Source: Promethearchaeia archaeon
Lineage (GTDB): Archaea > Asgardarchaeota > Lokiarchaeia > Sigyniarchaeales > SOKP01
NCBI GenBank assembly: GCA_029856145.1
Contig: JAHQWK010000026.1
Location: forward strand, 27,628 to 91,627
DNA: 64,000 nucleotides
Reading direction: 5' to 3'
Shown here: positions 25,435-33,142 of the stretch, piece by piece
Position numbering within the stretch: the stretch's first letter is position 1
Layout of the letters: the number at the start of each line of letters is the position of its first letter
The notes under the pieces: model-generated
The model's input: the letters and a program-made list of their open reading frames with translations, nothing else
What the model was told of the DNA's origin: nothing
Databases searched by the model: none
Program-made: the position numbers and the translations under genes

Positions 25435-25938
25435 TTGTCAAATTGTTATCTCTGTAATGTTGAAATAAAGGATCTCCCATACAGATGTAAATTTTGTGGT
25501 ATGATTTTCTGTAATAAGCACAGATTACCAGAAAATCATGATTGTCCTTTTGATTTAAGACAAAAAAATAAAGATTTTAACTCTTTGGATAAACCACTCT
25601 ATCAAGATGCACTTGATTTTATGGATAAAGACATAACTGTAGCTAAAATTTATGATTACGTAACAACAAATCAGATGACTAAATTAGAAGCAATAGAATT
25701 GTTGAATTATTTCCTAGAAAGAATTGATAATAAAGAAATTAGAAGGGTAAGCATACTTGCTTTCAAAATTTTAGAACTTAGAAGTGATAAAGCCTATAGT
25801 GTTCTAGAAAATTGTCTTCTTTCAGATGAAGATCCTAGCGTGATAAAAAACGCAGCAGATATTTTAAGATATCTGTTCCCTAAGAAGAGTAAAGAATTAT
25901 TAAATTGGATAAGTAAAAATGATAAGAATTTGAAATAA
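25435..25938 (+). CDS. AN1-type zinc finger plus HEAT-like repeat protein
   Basis: CYLC...YRCKFCGMIFCNKHRLPENHDC; C-terminal LLSDEDPSVIKNAA. Confidence 0.85.
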   Translation: MSNCYLCNVEIKDLPYRCKFCGMIFCNKHRLPENHDCPFDLRQKNKDFNSLDKPLYQDALDFMDKDITVAKIYDYVTTNQMTKLEAIELLNYFLERIDNKEIRRVSILAFKILELRSDKAYSVLENCLLSDEDPSVIKNAADILRYLFPKKSKELLNWISKNDKNLK

Positions 25939-25951
25939 TAACTAAAATAAA

Positions 25952-27262
25952 TTAAAATAAATTATTTTTTCTTTTTAGAATTAGACTTTCAATCTCTTCA
26001 CTAAGTTCTTCAACTTCCTTCTTATTATAATATTTTTTTACTCGAGTGTGCGCAATCCACCATAATATTAAAGTAACGGTCATTCCTATAATAGAACTAG
26101 AAAGAAATAAGTTGGTTACTCCAATTGTCTCAGATAATGGTCCAGTTATTATAGATGCAATAGGAACTATAGCAGATGAGATGGCCCAATCAAGAGAAGA
26201 CAACCTTCCCATTTTATCTGCTGGAACTTTTAATTGCATTATAGTTAAATAAATAGTATTAAGGATAGGAATAGTAATACCAGTAATACTGACTACAATA
26301 CCCATCATTAGAAATAATTGATAAGGAGTTAAGGCAATAATACCACTATTCATCATTAAGAGGAATTCAAGTCCAAAGTAGATGAAAAGAGCATGTTTCC
26401 ACTCTTTCTTTATGGAAGTTAACAGTGCACCTAACAGCATACCCCCATTCATGAAAACCATAAGAAATGCCAAATTTGATATATCACCTGAATGGCTATA
26501 TTTAATGAAATGCGGCATCAATATATTAACTGGAACTAATAGAAAGTTAATAAACATGGATATGAGAAGCATCATAAGAAGATCTGGAATTGATTTCAAT
26601 GTACGGATTCCACTTTTAAATTCTTCTAGAAATGATATCTTTTCAACAGTCGTAACTTCCTTCTTTAATTTAGGAATTTTAATTACTAACAAAGGAATAA
26701 TAGCTATGATAAATGTAAGTGGATCAATCCAAAGTATGATTTCAAACGGAATTAACGAGAATAACAAAGCGCCAATTACAGGTCCTAAGATTTGAATGAA
26801 ACTTCTAAAGAAAAAATTAACCCCATTCATTCTACTTAATTTTTCCTTGGGTACCATCGTCGGAACAATAGCACTTACTGTAGGGATATGAAAACCTTGG
26901 AAGATTCCTAGCAAACTCATTATTCCAACTATTAATATTGGGTTCACCACTCCAAAGTTGAAGATAATAATTACAAGAAGCATTACATATGCTTGGAGGG
27001 AATCAACTACTACTATAATTGTCTTCCGATTCCATTTATCAATTACCACACCAGATATTGCAACTACGATTGTCATTGGTAATATATAAAGAAAAGATGC
27101 TAATGAAAGAAGCATCGTGCTCCCTGTAGAGTCAGTTATCCACCAAATTATCGCAAAATGTGAAATTGATGATCCTAACACAGTAAATAACTGTCCTATC
27201 CAAAAAAATATATAATTTTTAAAAGTTTTTTGATTTGCTAAATTTTCTATTATGTATATCAC
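25952..27262 (-). CDS. MFS transporter, DHA3/MefA-like exporter
   Basis: FWIGQLFT.LGS, GVVIDKWNRK, PTMVPKEKLSRMNG; 12 TM. Confidence 0.92.
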   Translation of the reverse strand: MIYIIENLANQKTFKNYIFFWIGQLFTVLGSSISHFAIIWWITDSTGSTMLLSLASFLYILPMTIVVAISGVVIDKWNRKTIIVVVDSLQAYVMLLVIIIFNFGVVNPILIVGIMSLLGIFQGFHIPTVSAIVPTMVPKEKLSRMNGVNFFFRSFIQILGPVIGALLFSLIPFEIILWIDPLTFIIAIIPLLVIKIPKLKKEVTTVEKISFLEEFKSGIRTLKSIPDLLMMLLISMFINFLLVPVNILMPHFIKYSHSGDISNLAFLMVFMNGGMLLGALLTSIKKEWKHALFIYFGLEFLLMMNSGIIALTPYQLFLMMGIVVSITGITIPILNTIYLTIMQLKVPADKMGRLSSLDWAISSAIVPIASIITGPLSETIGVTNLFLSSSIIGMTVTLILWWIAHTRVKKYYNKKEVEELSEEIESLILKRKNNLF

Positions 27263-27297
27263 CTTATTTTTTGCATTTTGAAAAAAAAAGAAAAAAA

Positions 27298-28584
27298 TTA
27301 GATTGAAATATTTTCTATTTGACTATTGATTTCTTCGAGTGCACTTTTACTATCAATATCAACTTTTCTAATACCTGTGAAACTCCAAAAGCCAAGTGTA
27401 CAAATTACACCGAGGAATCCACTATAGAAAAACAACGACGGAATACCTAAAATTAAGGCCATTGGCCCTGCAAGTAATGCGCCTATTGGTGATATCGCTG
27501 AAGATAAGGCATGATCAATTGAAGTTACTCTTCCCATTTTATCAATAGGTACTGTAGTTTGTAAAAACGTTTGATAGAGAGCATTTATTATTGGTAAATT
27601 AAACCCTAAAATAGCCCCCCCTAAACCTATAATATAATAGTTACCTATAGGTGCTATCGCAAATATCATGTATCCTATCAAAGCAATTATAATACTAATA
27701 AAAATCACTCTGAGTTTATTTTTCCAATTCTTCTTAATTGAAGTAACTAACGCTCCAGCAATCATACCACCTGTGAAAGTAATTTCAGCTAATGCTAAAT
27801 GCCCGACGCCCCCTCCATGATTATCAATGATGAATAAAGACATAAGTGCGTTAACAGGTTGGATTAAGAAATTTAATAACATCGATAGGATTACCATAAT
27901 CACTAATCCAGGAATAATTTTTAATGTTTTTAGACCTAATCTAAATTCTTTGAAAAATGAGCTTTTTGCCTTTTTTTCTTCAGTATGATTGACTTGTCTC
28001 ACAGAAGGGATGTTTATCAGTAATAGTGGTATCAATGCAATAAAAAATGTAATAACGTCCACCCAGAGAATCATATATACTGATAAAAAAACTAACATCA
28101 TTGCCCCTATAAATGGTGCTAAAAGCTGAACTACACCTGTAAACAAAAAGTTAACCCCATTAATTCTTGATAGCTTATCTTTCGGAACCATTGTTGGAAT
28201 GATTGCATTAACAGTAGGTACATGGAATGCTTGAAATACACTGCGAAGGCTGATAAAGAGATAAACAATCCAAATATCTGGACTCCCAAAATAAAAGATA
28301 ATTATCAAGAGAATCGTAATATATGCTTGTAATGAATCTACAACTATAATAAGTACCTTTCGATTAATTCTATCTGCAATTACCCCTGCAAAAGGCATAC
28401 AAATAGTCATCATTAGTATATATAAAAATGAAGCAAAAGCACTTATTATGGGATCGTTGTAAATATCTGCGATCCAAAACGTTATTACAAAAAATACCAC
28501 CATCGAACCAAGCAAAGAAAATAATTGGCCACTCCAAAAAAATAAATAACTCTTAAATGTTCCCTTATTCGCAATTTCTTCCAT
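27298..28584 (-). CDS. MFS transporter, DHA3/MefA-like exporter (paralog)
   Basis: FWSGQLFSLLGS, GVIADRINRK, VPIDKMGRV. Confidence 0.92.
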   Translation of the reverse strand: MEEIANKGTFKSYLFFWSGQLFSLLGSMVVFFVITFWIADIYNDPIISAFASFLYILMMTICMPFAGVIADRINRKVLIIVVDSLQAYITILLIIIFYFGSPDIWIVYLFISLRSVFQAFHVPTVNAIIPTMVPKDKLSRINGVNFLFTGVVQLLAPFIGAMMLVFLSVYMILWVDVITFFIALIPLLLINIPSVRQVNHTEEKKAKSSFFKEFRLGLKTLKIIPGLVIMVILSMLLNFLIQPVNALMSLFIIDNHGGGVGHLALAEITFTGGMIAGALVTSIKKNWKNKLRVIFISIIIALIGYMIFAIAPIGNYYIIGLGGAILGFNLPIINALYQTFLQTTVPIDKMGRVTSIDHALSSAISPIGALLAGPMALILGIPSLFFYSGFLGVICTLGFWSFTGIRKVDIDSKSALEEINSQIENISI

Positions 28585-28653
28585 TCTTTATCCCCTAATT
28601 TCCTAATTTTTTTTTAATATATTTAATTAAATTTTTTTCTTAAATTATTCATT

Positions 28654-29763
28654 TTAGATTTTCCACTTTCCTTCTTCATAAATTATATTACTATCGGCTA
28701 CAATTTTTGAACCTGGGACTTTCATATCTTTTAGTAGATCCCAATGAATTGAAGAGACATTTTTTGAGCCAGTCCATTCGAAACCTAAACCTAAAGCACA
28801 ATGTAGTGTACCACCCATTTTCTCATCAAATAACATATTCTTAGTAAATTTCGTAACCCCATAATTCGTTCCGATAGCAAATTCACCTATTCTATTAGCA
28901 TTCTCTATTTTTAATATTTCTTCGAGGATTTCTTCACCTTTTTGAGCTGCCGCTTTAATTACTATTCCATCTTTAAACTCTAAATAGATATTTTCGACTT
29001 CTTTCCCCATATATATCCCGGGATATGTAAACCTAATATGCCCATTAACAGAATCTTCTACAGGACCAGTATAAATTTCACCATCAGGTAAATTTCTCTG
29101 ACCACTGCAATTTATCCATTTTCGACCCTTAACTGACAATAATAAGTCTGTATCTTCTCCAATAACGTGAATTTCTTTAACACCATTTAAATAATCAACA
29201 AAAACTTCTTGTTGCCTTTGCATTTTGCGCCATTCCTCAATAGGATTCTCTTTATCTAGGAACAAACTCTTGGTTATAAAATCGGAATATGAAAATAAAT
29301 CCATATTTGCTTCTTGGGCATAAGCGTTACAAGCATAGGGAAGTACCATCCACTTTAATTCTCCTTTAGAAGTCCTTTGCTCATAAATCTTCATCAATTC
29401 TTTCCTTTCGGGAGCACTCCTATATTTAGATAATATTTCGGGATTAATGTTACTATATTTGCGTGAATTATAATCTGCTCGTATTTCTATTATATGATCA
29501 GCTTCTTTAGATGCAAATTCTTCAATTTTATTAACATATAACAACTGTTCTTCTGAAGCAAATTTATAAAAAGTTTCTCTTATTCCTTCAATACTAGGCT
29601 TAATTATTGGATGAGCCCCAACTTTAATAACTTCTAGGTTTAAAACTTGAAATAAATCTTGTGCAAATGCAGGTCCACCTATATAAACCGTATGCCCCTT
29701 CTTTATCTCAAGTGAATATTCTACCACAATCTTAGCCAGTTTTTCATAAATTGGATTAATCAT
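28654..29763 (-). CDS. Aminopeptidase, M29 (AmpS/AmpT) family
   Basis: NLPDGEIY, GEFAIGTN, LFDEKMGGTLHCALG, SSIHWD. Confidence 0.93.
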   Translation of the reverse strand: MINPIYEKLAKIVVEYSLEIKKGHTVYIGGPAFAQDLFQVLNLEVIKVGAHPIIKPSIEGIRETFYKFASEEQLLYVNKIEEFASKEADHIIEIRADYNSRKYSNINPEILSKYRSAPERKELMKIYEQRTSKGELKWMVLPYACNAYAQEANMDLFSYSDFITKSLFLDKENPIEEWRKMQRQQEVFVDYLNGVKEIHVIGEDTDLLLSVKGRKWINCSGQRNLPDGEIYTGPVEDSVNGHIRFTYPGIYMGKEVENIYLEFKDGIVIKAAAQKGEEILEEILKIENANRIGEFAIGTNYGVTKFTKNMLFDEKMGGTLHCALGLGFEWTGSKNVSSIHWDLLKDMKVPGSKIVADSNIIYEEGKWKI

Positions 29764-29785
29764 TTTATATAATCACCTTTATTTA

Positions 29786-30715
29786 TTACATTTTATCAAT
29801 TAATTCATTCAGCTTTGAAATAACTTCTTCTGAAGAGCTCGTGAATTTGAAAACACCTTCCTCAAGAGTACCCTCAATTCCATCCGCAACTATCTCATAA
29901 ACCATATTCTCAGCATCTTCATTTGATTTATCTAACGCTTGGGCAAATTTATCAATTGGTAAATTATTAAGGAGCTTGATTAAACCACTTACTCTCTTTT
30001 TAATCTTTTCCTTTTTATCAGGTTCCAAGATAATTGCTGTCTTAATTTTTGGCCTTCCTTTCTTTTTTCCAAATTGCTTTCCAAGTTTTTCACCTATTTC
30101 CTCTATACCCGAGTCTTTTACCACTTGCTCAATATCTTCTCCCATTAACTCCAAATTGCGCCCCAATTTTTCCAATTTTGCTAAATCTCCAATGTTATTT
30201 TTAACAAATTTCATAGACTTTCGAACCAACTCTGAAACTGAAGCACCTAAACCATCTGCCCAATCTCTCCACTCATCACTCATTTCAGGATCAACAGAAA
30301 TGTTTATCCTTGATACTTTCTTTTTTATGTTTTCTATTCTTTTTCTCACTTTTTCATCAAATTTCGCTTCATGTTTTTCAAATTTCTCTTTCAGACGTTC
30401 AAGCTTGTCTTTCGCATCTTCAATATGATCTTTGGCATCATCTCCATATTGCTCTAATTCTCCTTTTATATTTCCAACTTCATTAAGTAAACTTTCTCGT
30501 TCTTCCATAAGTTCATCCAATTCATCCCTCAAATCGTCTTTTATATCTTCAGCCTCATCTTTTAAATCTTCAATGACATCCTTTAATTCATCATGCAAGT
30601 CGTCTAATTCAAAATTCAATTTGTCCTTTAAGTCATTTAATTCCCATTTTACTTTACTTCTCTCTCTTTCCTCTTCATTTAATTCTTTTTCATTCCATCC
30701 TTCATCATTCGACAT
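29786..30715 (-). CDS. Acidic coiled-coil plus ribbon-helix-helix (CopG-like) protein with C-terminal helical domain
   Basis: Long D/E heptad N-terminus; RINISVDPEMSDEWRDWADGLGASVSELVRKSM is an RHH pattern; AGGAGG SD. Confidence 0.7.
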   Translation of the reverse strand: MSNDEGWNEKELNEEERERSKVKWELNDLKDKLNFELDDLHDELKDVIEDLKDEAEDIKDDLRDELDELMEERESLLNEVGNIKGELEQYGDDAKDHIEDAKDKLERLKEKFEKHEAKFDEKVRKRIENIKKKVSRINISVDPEMSDEWRDWADGLGASVSELVRKSMKFVKNNIGDLAKLEKLGRNLELMGEDIEQVVKDSGIEEIGEKLGKQFGKKKGRPKIKTAIILEPDKKEKIKKRVSGLIKLLNNLPIDKFAQALDKSNEDAENMVYEIVADGIEGTLEEGVFKFTSSSEEVISKLNELIDKM

Positions 30716-30784
30716 TTTAATTCCTCCTAATTTCTTTTATTTTTTTTTCATTATTTTTTAATTTTAATTCATATATACTTAATT

Positions 30785-31468
30785 CTAATATAACAAATCT
30801 CTTTCTGTAATTTGAATAGGTTCATTAGCCAAGGTTGCTTTTTTGTGAACCTCAATACTGTCAACATAATAAAGGTTTCCTGAAATCTCCGTTCCCTCAC
30901 CAATATAGACATTTCGCCCTCTAACATCTCCTACAACAAAAGATCTTATAAGATCAACATTGTTTTTAGCGAAAATGCTTCCATGCACTTTACTAAGATG
31001 TTTATAAATACTTTTACCCAACGAACGTTCACGACCTAGAGTTACATCATTTCCAGATACATCTCCATGAATTGTTGATGATCCTGTAATTTTAATCAGT
31101 TTCTGAGATGAGATTCCACCTTTGACACTTGCAGAACCTGAAATATTAATTCCCTGAAGAGCCTCAACTCTATCTCCTACCCTTAATGAACCTGAGTTTA
31201 CTAATGTTCCTTTAACTAATATCTCCCCTCCAACTGTCATTGAACCAGAAGATTTTGCATTACCATCTCCATGAAGGGATCCTATAAGCCTAAACGAGCC
31301 AGAACTTTTGACATCACCATGAACAGTCAAACTCCCTTCCCCCCTCAATGAACCAGAGGATTGAAAGCCATTACACTCAAAATTTCCCTTTATTTTAGCA
31401 GAGCCCGAAATATGTATCTCATCATCAATTTTTCCCCCCGAAAGGGTTCCTGATCCAGAAATTTTCAT
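30785..31468 (-). CDS. Polymer-forming cytoskeletal (bactofilin-like) beta-helix protein
   Basis: Repeated I/VxSSGSxxVxG units throughout; GGAGGT SD. Confidence 0.8.
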   Translation of the reverse strand: MKISGSGTLSGGKIDDEIHISGSAKIKGNFECNGFQSSGSLRGEGSLTVHGDVKSSGSFRLIGSLHGDGNAKSSGSMTVGGEILVKGTLVNSGSLRVGDRVEALQGINISGSASVKGGISSQKLIKITGSSTIHGDVSGNDVTLGRERSLGKSIYKHLSKVHGSIFAKNNVDLIRSFVVGDVRGRNVYIGEGTEISGNLYYVDSIEVHKKATLANEPIQITERDLLY

Positions 31469-31530
31469 TTTTCTTACCTCCCTCTTTATTTTTTTTTTTT
31501 TTCTAATTTTATTTTTAAATTAATTTTTTA

Positions 31531-32259
31531 TTATATTTTCCCAACTGGTGCCAGATAAAGAGTGATTTCGTTCTCTCCATCGACACCAATAAATTTATCA
31601 AGTTCATCTTGCTTATATGCAACAATGGCACATGTACCAGTACTTATTGCCTCACACGCAAGATAAAGGTTTTGGCAAATATGACCAACTCCCATTAAAA
31701 TATCTTTAAGAGAATCTTCTCCATATCGCCACTCCAATCTATATGGTCTAGCAGTCCAGATAAAAACAACAGATGCTTTTCCAATAAAGGCTTGCCCATG
31801 GCACACTTCGACTAATTTCTCAGATAGACCAGTTTTATTAGTGTCTAAAACCAATAATTTATGTTCTACTGCTAAATATCGATATAATCCAGGCGCTAAC
31901 CCTTCAATATTATTTACTACTAAATATGTTTCATATGGATGCATTGCTCCACCAGAAGGAACTGTTCGTTTAGTTACCAACCCACCACGAGCAAGTTCCT
32001 TTACTCCTTGTGTAGCCCATAGCAAAAAAGATAATTCCTCTATAGTTAATTCAGCTTCAAGATACTTTCGACGACTTTCTCGATTATTTATTGCCTGCAT
32101 TAAGGAAATATCATCTAATTTAATAGAATCATGTGATATTAAGTCAATTAATCTAGCATCTTCAGGATACGGCTTTTGGATTGGAGGGATAGGAAAACCC
32201 TTCATTTGATCTGTTTCATCTTCCAAAACCGGATTTTTAAGATATTTTCGATATTCCAT
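31531..32259 (-). CDS. SagB/ThcOx family FMN-dependent dehydrogenase (nitroreductase fold)
   Basis: RESRRKY, ELSFLLWATQG, RTVPSGGAMHPYETY, GLYRY, WRYG, GHICQNLYLA; GGAGG SD. Confidence 0.9.
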   Translation of the reverse strand: MEYRKYLKNPVLEDETDQMKGFPIPPIQKPYPEDARLIDLISHDSIKLDDISLMQAINNRESRRKYLEAELTIEELSFLLWATQGVKELARGGLVTKRTVPSGGAMHPYETYLVVNNIEGLAPGLYRYLAVEHKLLVLDTNKTGLSEKLVEVCHGQAFIGKASVVFIWTARPYRLEWRYGEDSLKDILMGVGHICQNLYLACEAISTGTCAIVAYKQDELDKFIGVDGENEITLYLAPVGKI

Positions 32260-32280
32260 GTTATAATTCCTCCTAGTTAA

Positions 32281-32376
32281 TTAATAATATCGTTTAGCAC
32301 GAATTTGAGCATCCAACTTAGCTTTTAGATCCTTATAATACTCATATCCAATTTCTTTTCTTTCTATTCTTTTCAT
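32281..32376 (-). CDS. Tyr-rich micro-peptide A (31 aa), candidate precursor peptide
   Basis: MKRIERKEIGYEYYKDLKAKLDAQIRAKRYY*; GAGGT SD upstream; paralog of 32469-32552. Confidence 0.75.
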   Translation of the reverse strand: MKRIERKEIGYEYYKDLKAKLDAQIRAKRYY

Positions 32377-32439
32377 TTTTTTAACCTCTAATTCATATTT
32401 ATTTCTTTTCTTTATGATGTTTTAATAATTTTGATGATC

Positions 32440-32468
32440 ATGATAAAAAAAAATAAAAAAAATTGTAT
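32440..32468 (-). terminator. Possible oligo-U terminator/attenuator after peptide B
   Basis: Two long T runs on the minus strand immediately after the stop codon. Confidence 0.4.
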
Positions 32469-32552
32469 TTAATAATACATTTTATCAACAAACGCTCTTT
32501 TAGCGTCAAACTGGGCTTTAACATTTTTGTAATATTCATAACTATTTTCCAT
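32469..32552 (-). CDS. Tyr-rich micro-peptide B (27 aa; 32 aa if started at 32567), candidate precursor peptide
   Basis: MENSYEYYKNVKAQFDAKRAFVDKMYY*; GGTGA SD at 32561-32565. Confidence 0.75.
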   Translation of the reverse strand: MENSYEYYKNVKAQFDAKRAFVDKMYY

Positions 32553-32595
32553 TTTTTTTTTCACCATTTTTTTATTTTTTTTTTAATTTTTTTTT

Positions 32596-32770
32596 GAGTG
32601 TGTATAATTTTTTATTCTCTGATCATGAAGTGTGTATTATCATATTTAAATGTTGTGTATTGAAGTGTGTATTTTTGATCGTAAAAAGTATGAATATTAA
32701 GGGGAAGAGACGTTCTATTCATGCTTTAGTGAATTGCATGGGGGGGTGTACTAAAAAATTCAATACACAA
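32596..32770 (-). promoter_or_regulatory. Promoter of the peptide/SagB cluster with repeated TGTGTAT boxes
   Basis: Minus-strand TATA TTTAAATA at 32643-32650; TGTGTAT at 32599, 32631, 32654, 32666; inverted ATACACA at 32763. Confidence 0.6.
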
Positions 32771-32809: not shown

Positions 32810-33142
32810 TTATCCAGCAGTACTAGCAGGGATTAATAGAATATCGTCACCATTATTTACGTCATAGTCTTTTAATGAGCTATTTTCATCCATTGTAACG
32901 CCACCAGATGATAAATGAAAATCATTAGGATCAAGTCCATATAAATTTCCTAATGTATGTTTAATATCATTCACATTATTACTGTCATTCACAGTTAATT
33001 TTTCTTTCTTTTCACCAGGACCAATTGTTGACATGAAGTATAAAGTTAATTTCTTTCCTGCTGAAGGGGTTTTAGACGCGGGAGTTTTAGATTTTACTGG
33101 TTCTTCTCCACCCAAATTTTCATCAAATTCATCAAAACTCAT
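32810..33142 (-). CDS. Ubiquitin-like (beta-grasp) protein with disordered N-terminal extension, ending in AG
   Basis: LTV.....VNDIK..LG...GLDP.DFHLSSGG..MDE.SSLKDYDV.NGD.ILLI...TAG. Confidence 0.8.
   Translation of the reverse strand: MSFDEFDENLGGEEPVKSKTPASKTPSAGKKLTLYFMSTIGPGEKKEKLTVNDSNNVNDIKHTLGNLYGLDPNDFHLSSGGVTMDENSSLKDYDVNNGDDILLIPASTAG

Follow-up and report, generated by a model that had tools for sequence, protein, structure and literature searches.

A micro-peptide family sharing a candidate boxed promoter with a putative regulator and MefA-like transporters in Loki-type Asgard archaea

Aureocin A70 (aurABCD) and psm-alpha are loci in which several leaderless peptides are encoded together. 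Bactofilins are co-encoded with a DNA-binding regulator of their own operon in BacR(YhbD)-BacEF of Bacillus subtilis (PMC13649987) and in Cap0037-Cap0036 of Clostridium acetobutylicum (PMC5050335), and whiB7/wblC is a self-controlled regulator located behind an upstream open reading frame (uORF) and a terminator, with a major facilitator superfamily (MFS) transporter in its regulon (PMC10727445). The present study concerns an operon on the minus strand (25952-32770) of a 64,000-nt stretch of a Promethearchaeia archaeon genome, referred to as the window, whose positions serve as coordinates throughout. Two micro-peptide genes, B and then A, are followed by genes for a SagB-type nitroreductase, a bactofilin-like protein, a ribbon-helix-helix (RHH) protein, an aminopeptidase and two MFS transporters (Table 1), with gaps in transcription order of 92, 21, 62, 69, 22, 69 and 35 bp. 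A preliminary description had read this layout as a candidate cluster for peptides made by ribosomes and modified after translation (RiPPs). The two micro-ORFs, their Shine-Dalgarno (SD) motifs and the co-oriented gene run it reported were all recovered, to which can be added a promoter with TACACA boxes and a double U-tract behind the first peptide gene.

Comparison across genomes indicates that the conserved unit is this boxed promoter, common to peptide arrays, to the RHH/coiled-coil/winged-helix protein and to MefA-like MFS transporters, and that the two micro-ORFs are genuine genes, belonging to a peptide family that had gone unnoticed in Loki-type Asgard archaea. As proposed earlier, peptides A and B resemble each other more closely than chance would allow: when the 22,208 short ORFs of the genome were ranked with the family profile, only peptides A and B and a third copy stood above background. 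The third copy lies on another contig (C7) with the same upstream DNA, and without any operon gene. The selection at the protein level that had been suspected from codon differences is also supported by the ratio of nonsynonymous to synonymous substitution rates (dN/dS), which for the 27-aa class is 0.29 in frame versus 0.91 and 1.11 in the shifted frames (22 orthologues; codon bootstrap range 0.14-0.58, the pairs not being independent). Two other classes gave 0.19 and 0.27 and a fourth gave 0.43, with shifted frames mostly between 0.6 and 1.1, while one small class (n=5) gave 0.77.

The homologue search, anchored on the bactofilin and RHH genes, returned 92 small ORFs in 51 genomes, and the family later grew to 109 distinct sequences of 22-41 aa in more than 50 genomes, belonging to two main genera. 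Nearly all of these ORFs are preceded by an SD motif, and they occur in arrays of one to three. By profile search, the family is present in 50 of the 135 genomes of the taxonomic family, again in two genera. The peptides fall into seven sequence classes that hardly cross-score and match no family in Pfam or NCBIfam; their profile found no mimicry match among the genome's large proteins. A hydrophobic-x-x-hydrophobic-K-x-x-hydrophobic motif, picked after inspection, is present in 81 of the 109 peptides versus 17 in shuffled sequences (maximum 29). The last residue is aromatic in 71/109, versus 11% of the genome's proteins. A terminal YY, formerly taken as a conserved mark, occurs in only 16/92 members and was discarded as an invariant signature of the family, and the peptides are not essentially free of Cys, Ser and Thr, as had been stated, given a family mean of 2.9 such residues per peptide. 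The HbYX ending (hydrophobic-Tyr-X) is found in peptide B and in 23/26 of its ENSY class, versus 1.5% of the genome's proteins, the class members being related sequences; it is absent from peptide A and most other classes. The hydrophobic moment on the Eisenberg scale is not above that of shuffles (mean z from -1.1 to +0.8 by class), and no Gly-Gly cleavage site occurs in the peptides, despite an ELxxI-like helix. Peptide B itself has an in-frame ATG at 32567, which overlaps the SD motif; many homologues do not have that ATG.

The TACACA boxes frame the TATA box at fixed offsets near -99, -21, +14 and +46. The box at +14 keeps its offset in 23 of 37 loci, and roughly ten loci have an inverted box between -116 and -120. 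Intergenic clusters of at least three boxes occur twice in the 3.55-Mb genome, both times before these peptides. U-tracts follow 32/35 non-last and 21/23 sole peptide genes, but only 2/28 last ones. Two U4 tracts make a strong aCPSF1 terminator, and the Loki enzyme uses such tracts (PMC8716108). No Rfam family was matched, and no hairpin terminators or sigma-70 promoters were found. In a single genome (G017), a small CopG-like gene stands directly upstream of the boxed promoter (L125:2314-2745, coordinates in operon orientation).

A comparison of 55 related loci, 56 with the window, shows which genes travel together. The RHH gene is present at 54 of the 55, peptides at 50 by rule, bactofilin at 49, MFS genes (one to four) at 47, the M29 aminopeptidase at 18 and the nitroreductase at three. 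Of the five loci scored as peptide-less, two are contig ends and two have a peptide by other searches; several of the loci missing MFS genes are likewise cut by contig ends. This distribution indicates that oxidase, peptidase and bactofilin are optional members. In pairs of species, free-standing units of promoter and peptide have been retained, the next gene being convergent. As separate observations, truncated RHH genes at four loci (L140, L143, L144 and L256) have lost the acidic coiled coil, and their first residues are those of a peptide (MEN... or MKRTERI...); these are fusions by deletion, and three of them make up a second locus in the genome concerned. Large genes resembling winged helix-turn-helix (wHTH)-TPR regulators, by N-terminal likeness only, lie downstream of the MFS genes and convergent to the RHH-MFS operon in certain genomes of the second genus (L187, L190).

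P. syntrophicum MK-D1 and Candidatus Lokiarchaeum ossiferum, both cultured, belong to the same order as the source genome, and their closed genomes contain the regulon (DSAG12_01949-01951 and DSAG12_01052 in MK-D1; NEF87_004384 and NEF87_000139 in L. ossiferum). Six boxed promoters were found in L. ossiferum: one stands before a pair of peptide genes with the RHH gene, three before free arrays and two before MFS operons. They were chosen by motif spacing from the output of looser pattern searches, which also give chance matches at control level. Its 13 peptide genes, in four arrays, all end in two aromatic residues, and 11 of them are in arrays without MFS or RHH genes. One MFS operon has two MefA-like genes and the other a run of MdtH-like genes, neither with a leader peptide, and bactofilin is missing from the RHH locus. 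The MdtH-like run also includes NEF87_000591 (L261), whose 168-aa product looks RHH-like at its N-terminus on visual inspection and has no Pfam match. MK-D1 has four near-identical peptide genes ahead of its bactofilin and RHH genes and a single one ahead of a DHA3 MFS gene; one of these peptides is annotated (DSAG12_01949). The peptides of both organisms agree with the window's family in position, promoter and size, with no detectable sequence likeness. Published MK-D1 expression, in reads per kilobase per million (RPKM), is 277 for the peptide, 327 for bactofilin and 331 for the RHH gene, with neighbours at about 170-230 (PMC7015854, Suppl. Table 3); these reads are weak evidence, because the baseline is flat and repeats can share reads. 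In the closed genomes the motif marks a split regulon, which in the window is joined in one operon.

The reading we prefer, held tentatively and with less than even confidence, is that the peptides act unmodified and in trans, and are exported or handled by the co-regulated MFS proteins. The RHH protein would bind the TACACA boxes and control its own regulon, and the terminators behind the first peptides would cause peptide mRNA to exceed downstream mRNA. Each peptide would combine the conserved helix with a variable, usually aromatic C-terminal part, and could leave the cell through the MFS proteins, whole or trimmed by the aminopeptidase, as a lineage-specific signal or antagonist. Bactofilin may hold and release the regulator, by analogy with BacE/F and BacR, and the nitroreductase would be accessory cargo. 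Trans-acting products made in excess are favoured because free units are kept beside convergent genes, because L. ossiferum separates peptides from MFS operons, and because identical copies are amplified. In addition, similar micro-peptides accompany a separate wHTH-TPR system in the same genome; given that micro-peptide, U-tract and MefA-like MFS recur under this second regulator type, the pattern points to the transporter as the peptides' partner. A bolder version, a dedicated Asgard communication or warfare system present in both long-cultured Lokiarchaeia, with MFS-exported lineage-specific peptides sensed by an RHH-type regulator unrelated to bacterial peptide receptors, is possible but doubtful.

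The second system comprises two wHTH-TPR regulators, each divergent from a micro-peptide of 25-27 aa (L322; G000:C3:139993-143700 and 147548-151100), with a U-tract and zinc-finger micro-ORFs; the first of these loci continues into a MefA-like MFS gene. These peptides resemble the ELII class weakly, 3-9 of 200 shuffles reaching as high a score. In two genomes (L249:3145-3232 and L258:1-520), the locus that is syntenic to the wHTH-TPR system contains a peptide of the ENSY class, then an ORF of about 80 codons and then an MFS gene, an apparent exchange of peptides between the two regulons.

Several points weigh against the preferred reading. In contrast to most antimicrobial peptides that are secreted, these are not hydrophobic and show no excess amphipathicity, and the C39 exporter (PF03412) was not found in five genomes. 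DHA3 transporters are known for small molecules. The five RHH-protein homologues examined all match the RHH clan, the best at E 5.6e-5, yet all under the cut-off. Genes downstream of some free arrays could be targets in cis. Finally, the terminator-like tract after 53 of the 58 first or sole peptides suits attenuation equally well. In that alternative, the peptides are leader or arrest peptides, and a ribosome on the ORF decides aCPSF1 termination at the U-tract a few bases past the stop, so that translation stress would switch on efflux pumps, peptidase and nitroreductase in the manner of the whiB7 uORF or tnaC. Efflux cargo fits this, as does the control of whiB7 by a uORF and terminator. 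Besides the placement of the U-tracts, most classes place the motif Lys 13-15 residues before the stop, with more variation in N-terminal length, and 12/13 L. ossiferum peptides have a Trp 9-10 residues from their end. However, free arrays with convergent neighbours are kept across species, in L. ossiferum the promoter stands before MFS operons that contain no leader peptide and 11 peptides lie away from MFS and RHH genes, near-identical tandem copies suggest dosage, and no covariation was detected for long-range pairing of the A-rich leader and SD with the U-tract (p 0.71). Taken together, we consider attenuation unlikely, if still a serious competitor to exported peptides.

The constant partner of the peptides is the RHH protein, a candidate regulator with an acidic coiled coil, an RHH-like segment at residues ~135-170 and a PCI-like winged helix at ~232-308. 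The Pfam matches to RHH are below cut-off (E 0.11 in the window, 5.6e-5 in the L. ossiferum orthologue), the RHH region is poorly modelled as a monomer in structure prediction, and a fold search with the model gave only weak winged-helix or PCI matches (E above 0.001). No TPR domain was found on the family, whose members turned up in just two families of one order among 301 genomes of the phylum. DUF4004 (PF13171) scored 13.7 bits against a cut-off of 27, over the winged helix only (E 0.08). The nearest look-alikes of the bactofilin outside Asgard archaea are in Bacillota. A second bactofilin paralogue of 49% identity (L149; G000:C23:18373-19017), widespread in the genus, has no boxes, peptides or RHH gene beside it.

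Two further explanations were considered. In the first, the peptides are intracellular effectors of a stress regulon, the helix acting as a switch by binding bactofilin or the RHH protein, or the aromatic C-terminus docking on the 20S proteasome in HbYX-like fashion. The peptides are basic and the partner's coiled coil is acidic, HbYX endings are enriched in the (related) ENSY peptides, every L. ossiferum peptide has its aromatic pair, the operon includes an aminopeptidase, and several loci have a ubiquitin-like gene upstream. Yet four of the seven classes and the MK-D1 array lack HbYX, peptides are still found next to RHH copies without the acidic domain, an ENSY peptide also occurs at the locus of another regulator type, and the constant MFS link is left unexplained. 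We rate this explanation as rather unlikely, though still a contender. In the second, the locus is a ParB/centromere-like or cytoskeletal module, with the boxes as centromere, the RHH protein as adaptor, bactofilin as filament and the peptides as subunits. The RHH, phased repeats and bactofilin would suit such a module, but the boxes lie on both sides of the TATA box with constant spacing and are also present in front of MFS operons and free arrays, and many loci have no bactofilin, that of L. ossiferum included, which makes a partition or cytoskeletal role very unlikely.

The remaining alternative is the earlier one, that the peptides are RiPP precursors modified by the SagB-like flavoenzyme, at least in a four-genome clade. 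The enzyme begins 21 bp behind peptide A and passes the TIGR03605 cut-off (139.6 versus 78.4 bits), the adjacent peptide ends in Y-Y or Y-F at all four enzyme loci, and a helix with a variable tail recalls a leader with a core. SagB/ThcOx-type oxidases have a catalytic Lys-Tyr motif; the WKY of ThcOx aligns to WRY here, with Tyr kept and Lys replaced by Arg. The 242-aa enzyme aligns only to ThcOx 250-454, the flavin domain. The leader-binding clamps of ThcOx are N-terminal (PMC5108345), and no leader-binding domain (peptide clamp or RiPP recognition element) was among the cluster's Pfam matches. Searches of the four genomes that carry the enzyme (88-97% complete) and of MK-D1 found no YcaO (PF02624), the control being positive in 5/14.

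Against a role for the enzyme stands its presence at only 4/56 loci, the window's included, which form one nested clade on the bactofilin tree (SH-like approximate likelihood ratio test, SH-aLRT, 90; one change). On the RHH tree these loci are not one clade and three changes are needed, which gives the operon a mosaic look. Peptides of the same classes are present where the enzyme is missing, closed genomes included. Small ORFs next to related enzymes, on which the RiPP proposal depended, were sought and not seen outside the four-genome clade, whereas peptides are found at nearly every enzyme-less locus. Relatives of the enzyme at 68-75% identity adjoin flavodoxin, prismane, ZIP or endosomal sorting (ESCRT) genes without a peptide array or box cluster, SagB-like paralogues are common (36/41 relatives), and no other modifying enzyme is conserved across peptide loci. 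One such 75% identical nitroreductase lies between ESCRT genes (Vps4, Snf7) and pfkB (L240:3235-5606). The comparison suggests that the enzyme is a recent add-on, accessory cargo rather than the peptides' core partner, and a RiPP pathway is highly unlikely; the enzyme may still have a local role in its four-genome clade. From the first account, real, selected peptides that travel with MefA-like exporters thus remain, tailoring by the flavoenzyme as the core does not, and the regulatory or stress operon that it offered as an alternative fits the evidence better. Small ORFs next to a gene annotated as SagB are not in themselves enough for a RiPP cluster.

Table 1. Features of the operon, in order of transcription.
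Feature	Position	Strand	Remarks
Inverted TACACA box	32764..32769	+	~115 bp upstream of TATA box
Two TACACA boxes directly upstream of TATA box, candidate operator	32654..32671	-	
TATA box TTTAAATA	32643..32650	-	read from sequence; kept in compared loci
TACACA box at +14, between TATA box and inferred start site	32631..32636	-	
TACACA box at +46, in 5' leader	32599..32604	-	
Peptide B, 27 aa, ENSY class	32469..32552	-	
Double U-tract (T8-A-T9) and conserved ATCA(C/T)GATCA motif behind peptide B, candidate aCPSF1 terminator	32433..32462	-	
Peptide A, 31 aa, KRIE class	32281..32376	-	without U-tract behind; next SD follows stop
Single-domain SagB-type nitroreductase, 242 aa, clade-specific insertion	31531..32259	-	TIGR03605
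Bactofilin-like beta-helix protein, 227 aa	30785..31468	-	PF04519 over cut-off
Acidic coiled coil + RHH + PCI-like winged helix, candidate regulator	29786..30715	-	
M29 aminopeptidase, optional member	28654..29763	-	PF02073 259.9 bits
MefA-like (DHA3-type) MFS transporter 1	27298..28584	-	below Mef cut-offs; double U-tract behind
MefA-like MFS transporter 2	25952..27262	-	

The operon is flanked directly upstream by a ubiquitin-like gene (32810-33142), also upstream of it in several relatives, whose paralogues in the genome are 95%, 91% and 67% identical. At the other end lies a convergent gene for an AN1 zinc finger and HEAT-like protein (25435-25938), an arrangement shared by about a dozen relatives.

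The comparative evidence is strong and cultured models are available; it is from this evidence that we infer function. The results bear on whether peptides serve Asgard archaea as signals to their neighbours or as weapons against them, and on peptide-dependent attenuation in archaea. Given that the regulon is present in two cultured organisms, either outcome is testable.

In comparison with known systems, aureocin A70 and psm-alpha share with this locus tandem genes of 20-31 aa with an SD motif each, dedicated exporters and a regulator. They differ in that export here would be by MFS rather than ABC proteins, the peptides have no excess amphipathicity, the regulator is of RHH type, and archaeal terminators lie between the peptides. 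Membership among PSM-like or leaderless antimicrobial peptides was rejected, strongly amphipathic helices not being found, and double-glycine bacteriocins were set aside given the missing cleavage site and C39 exporter reported above. The RRNPP systems (Rgg/SHP, Rap/Phr, PlcR/PapR) also have short peptides with a basic N-terminus and variable C-terminus, and an exporter and peptidase under one regulator. Here, however, the constant regulator has an RHH, a coiled coil and a winged helix and no TPR, there is no hydrophobic signal region, and no TPR receptor stands beside the peptide gene, so an assignment to RRNPP was dropped. The azol(in)e RiPP clusters (SagB/ThcOx/McbC) resemble the window in having a flavoenzyme beside short ORFs, a peptidase and exporters, and differ by YcaO and leader-binding domains, neither found here, by WKY in place of WRY, and by the absence of the enzyme at 52/56 loci.

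BacR-BacEF and Cap0037-Cap0036 likewise have a bactofilin gene in the regulator's operon. Although this feature is shared, the regulator here is not a DUF4004 protein, for which reason a BacR switch was rejected as an assignment; in addition, no peptides or MFS genes are described there, and bactofilin is optional here. With whiB7/wblC the locus shares a regulator behind a small ORF and terminator and an MFS gene in the regulon, but the terminator there is a hairpin and here U-tracts, and the peptides here are selected at their residues, multi-copy and often free-standing. No paper was found in the literature on these peptides, the regulator or the motif. The layout of peptide, exporter and regulator is of an already known kind, while the peptide family, the regulator and the motif appear to be undescribed in the literature searched.

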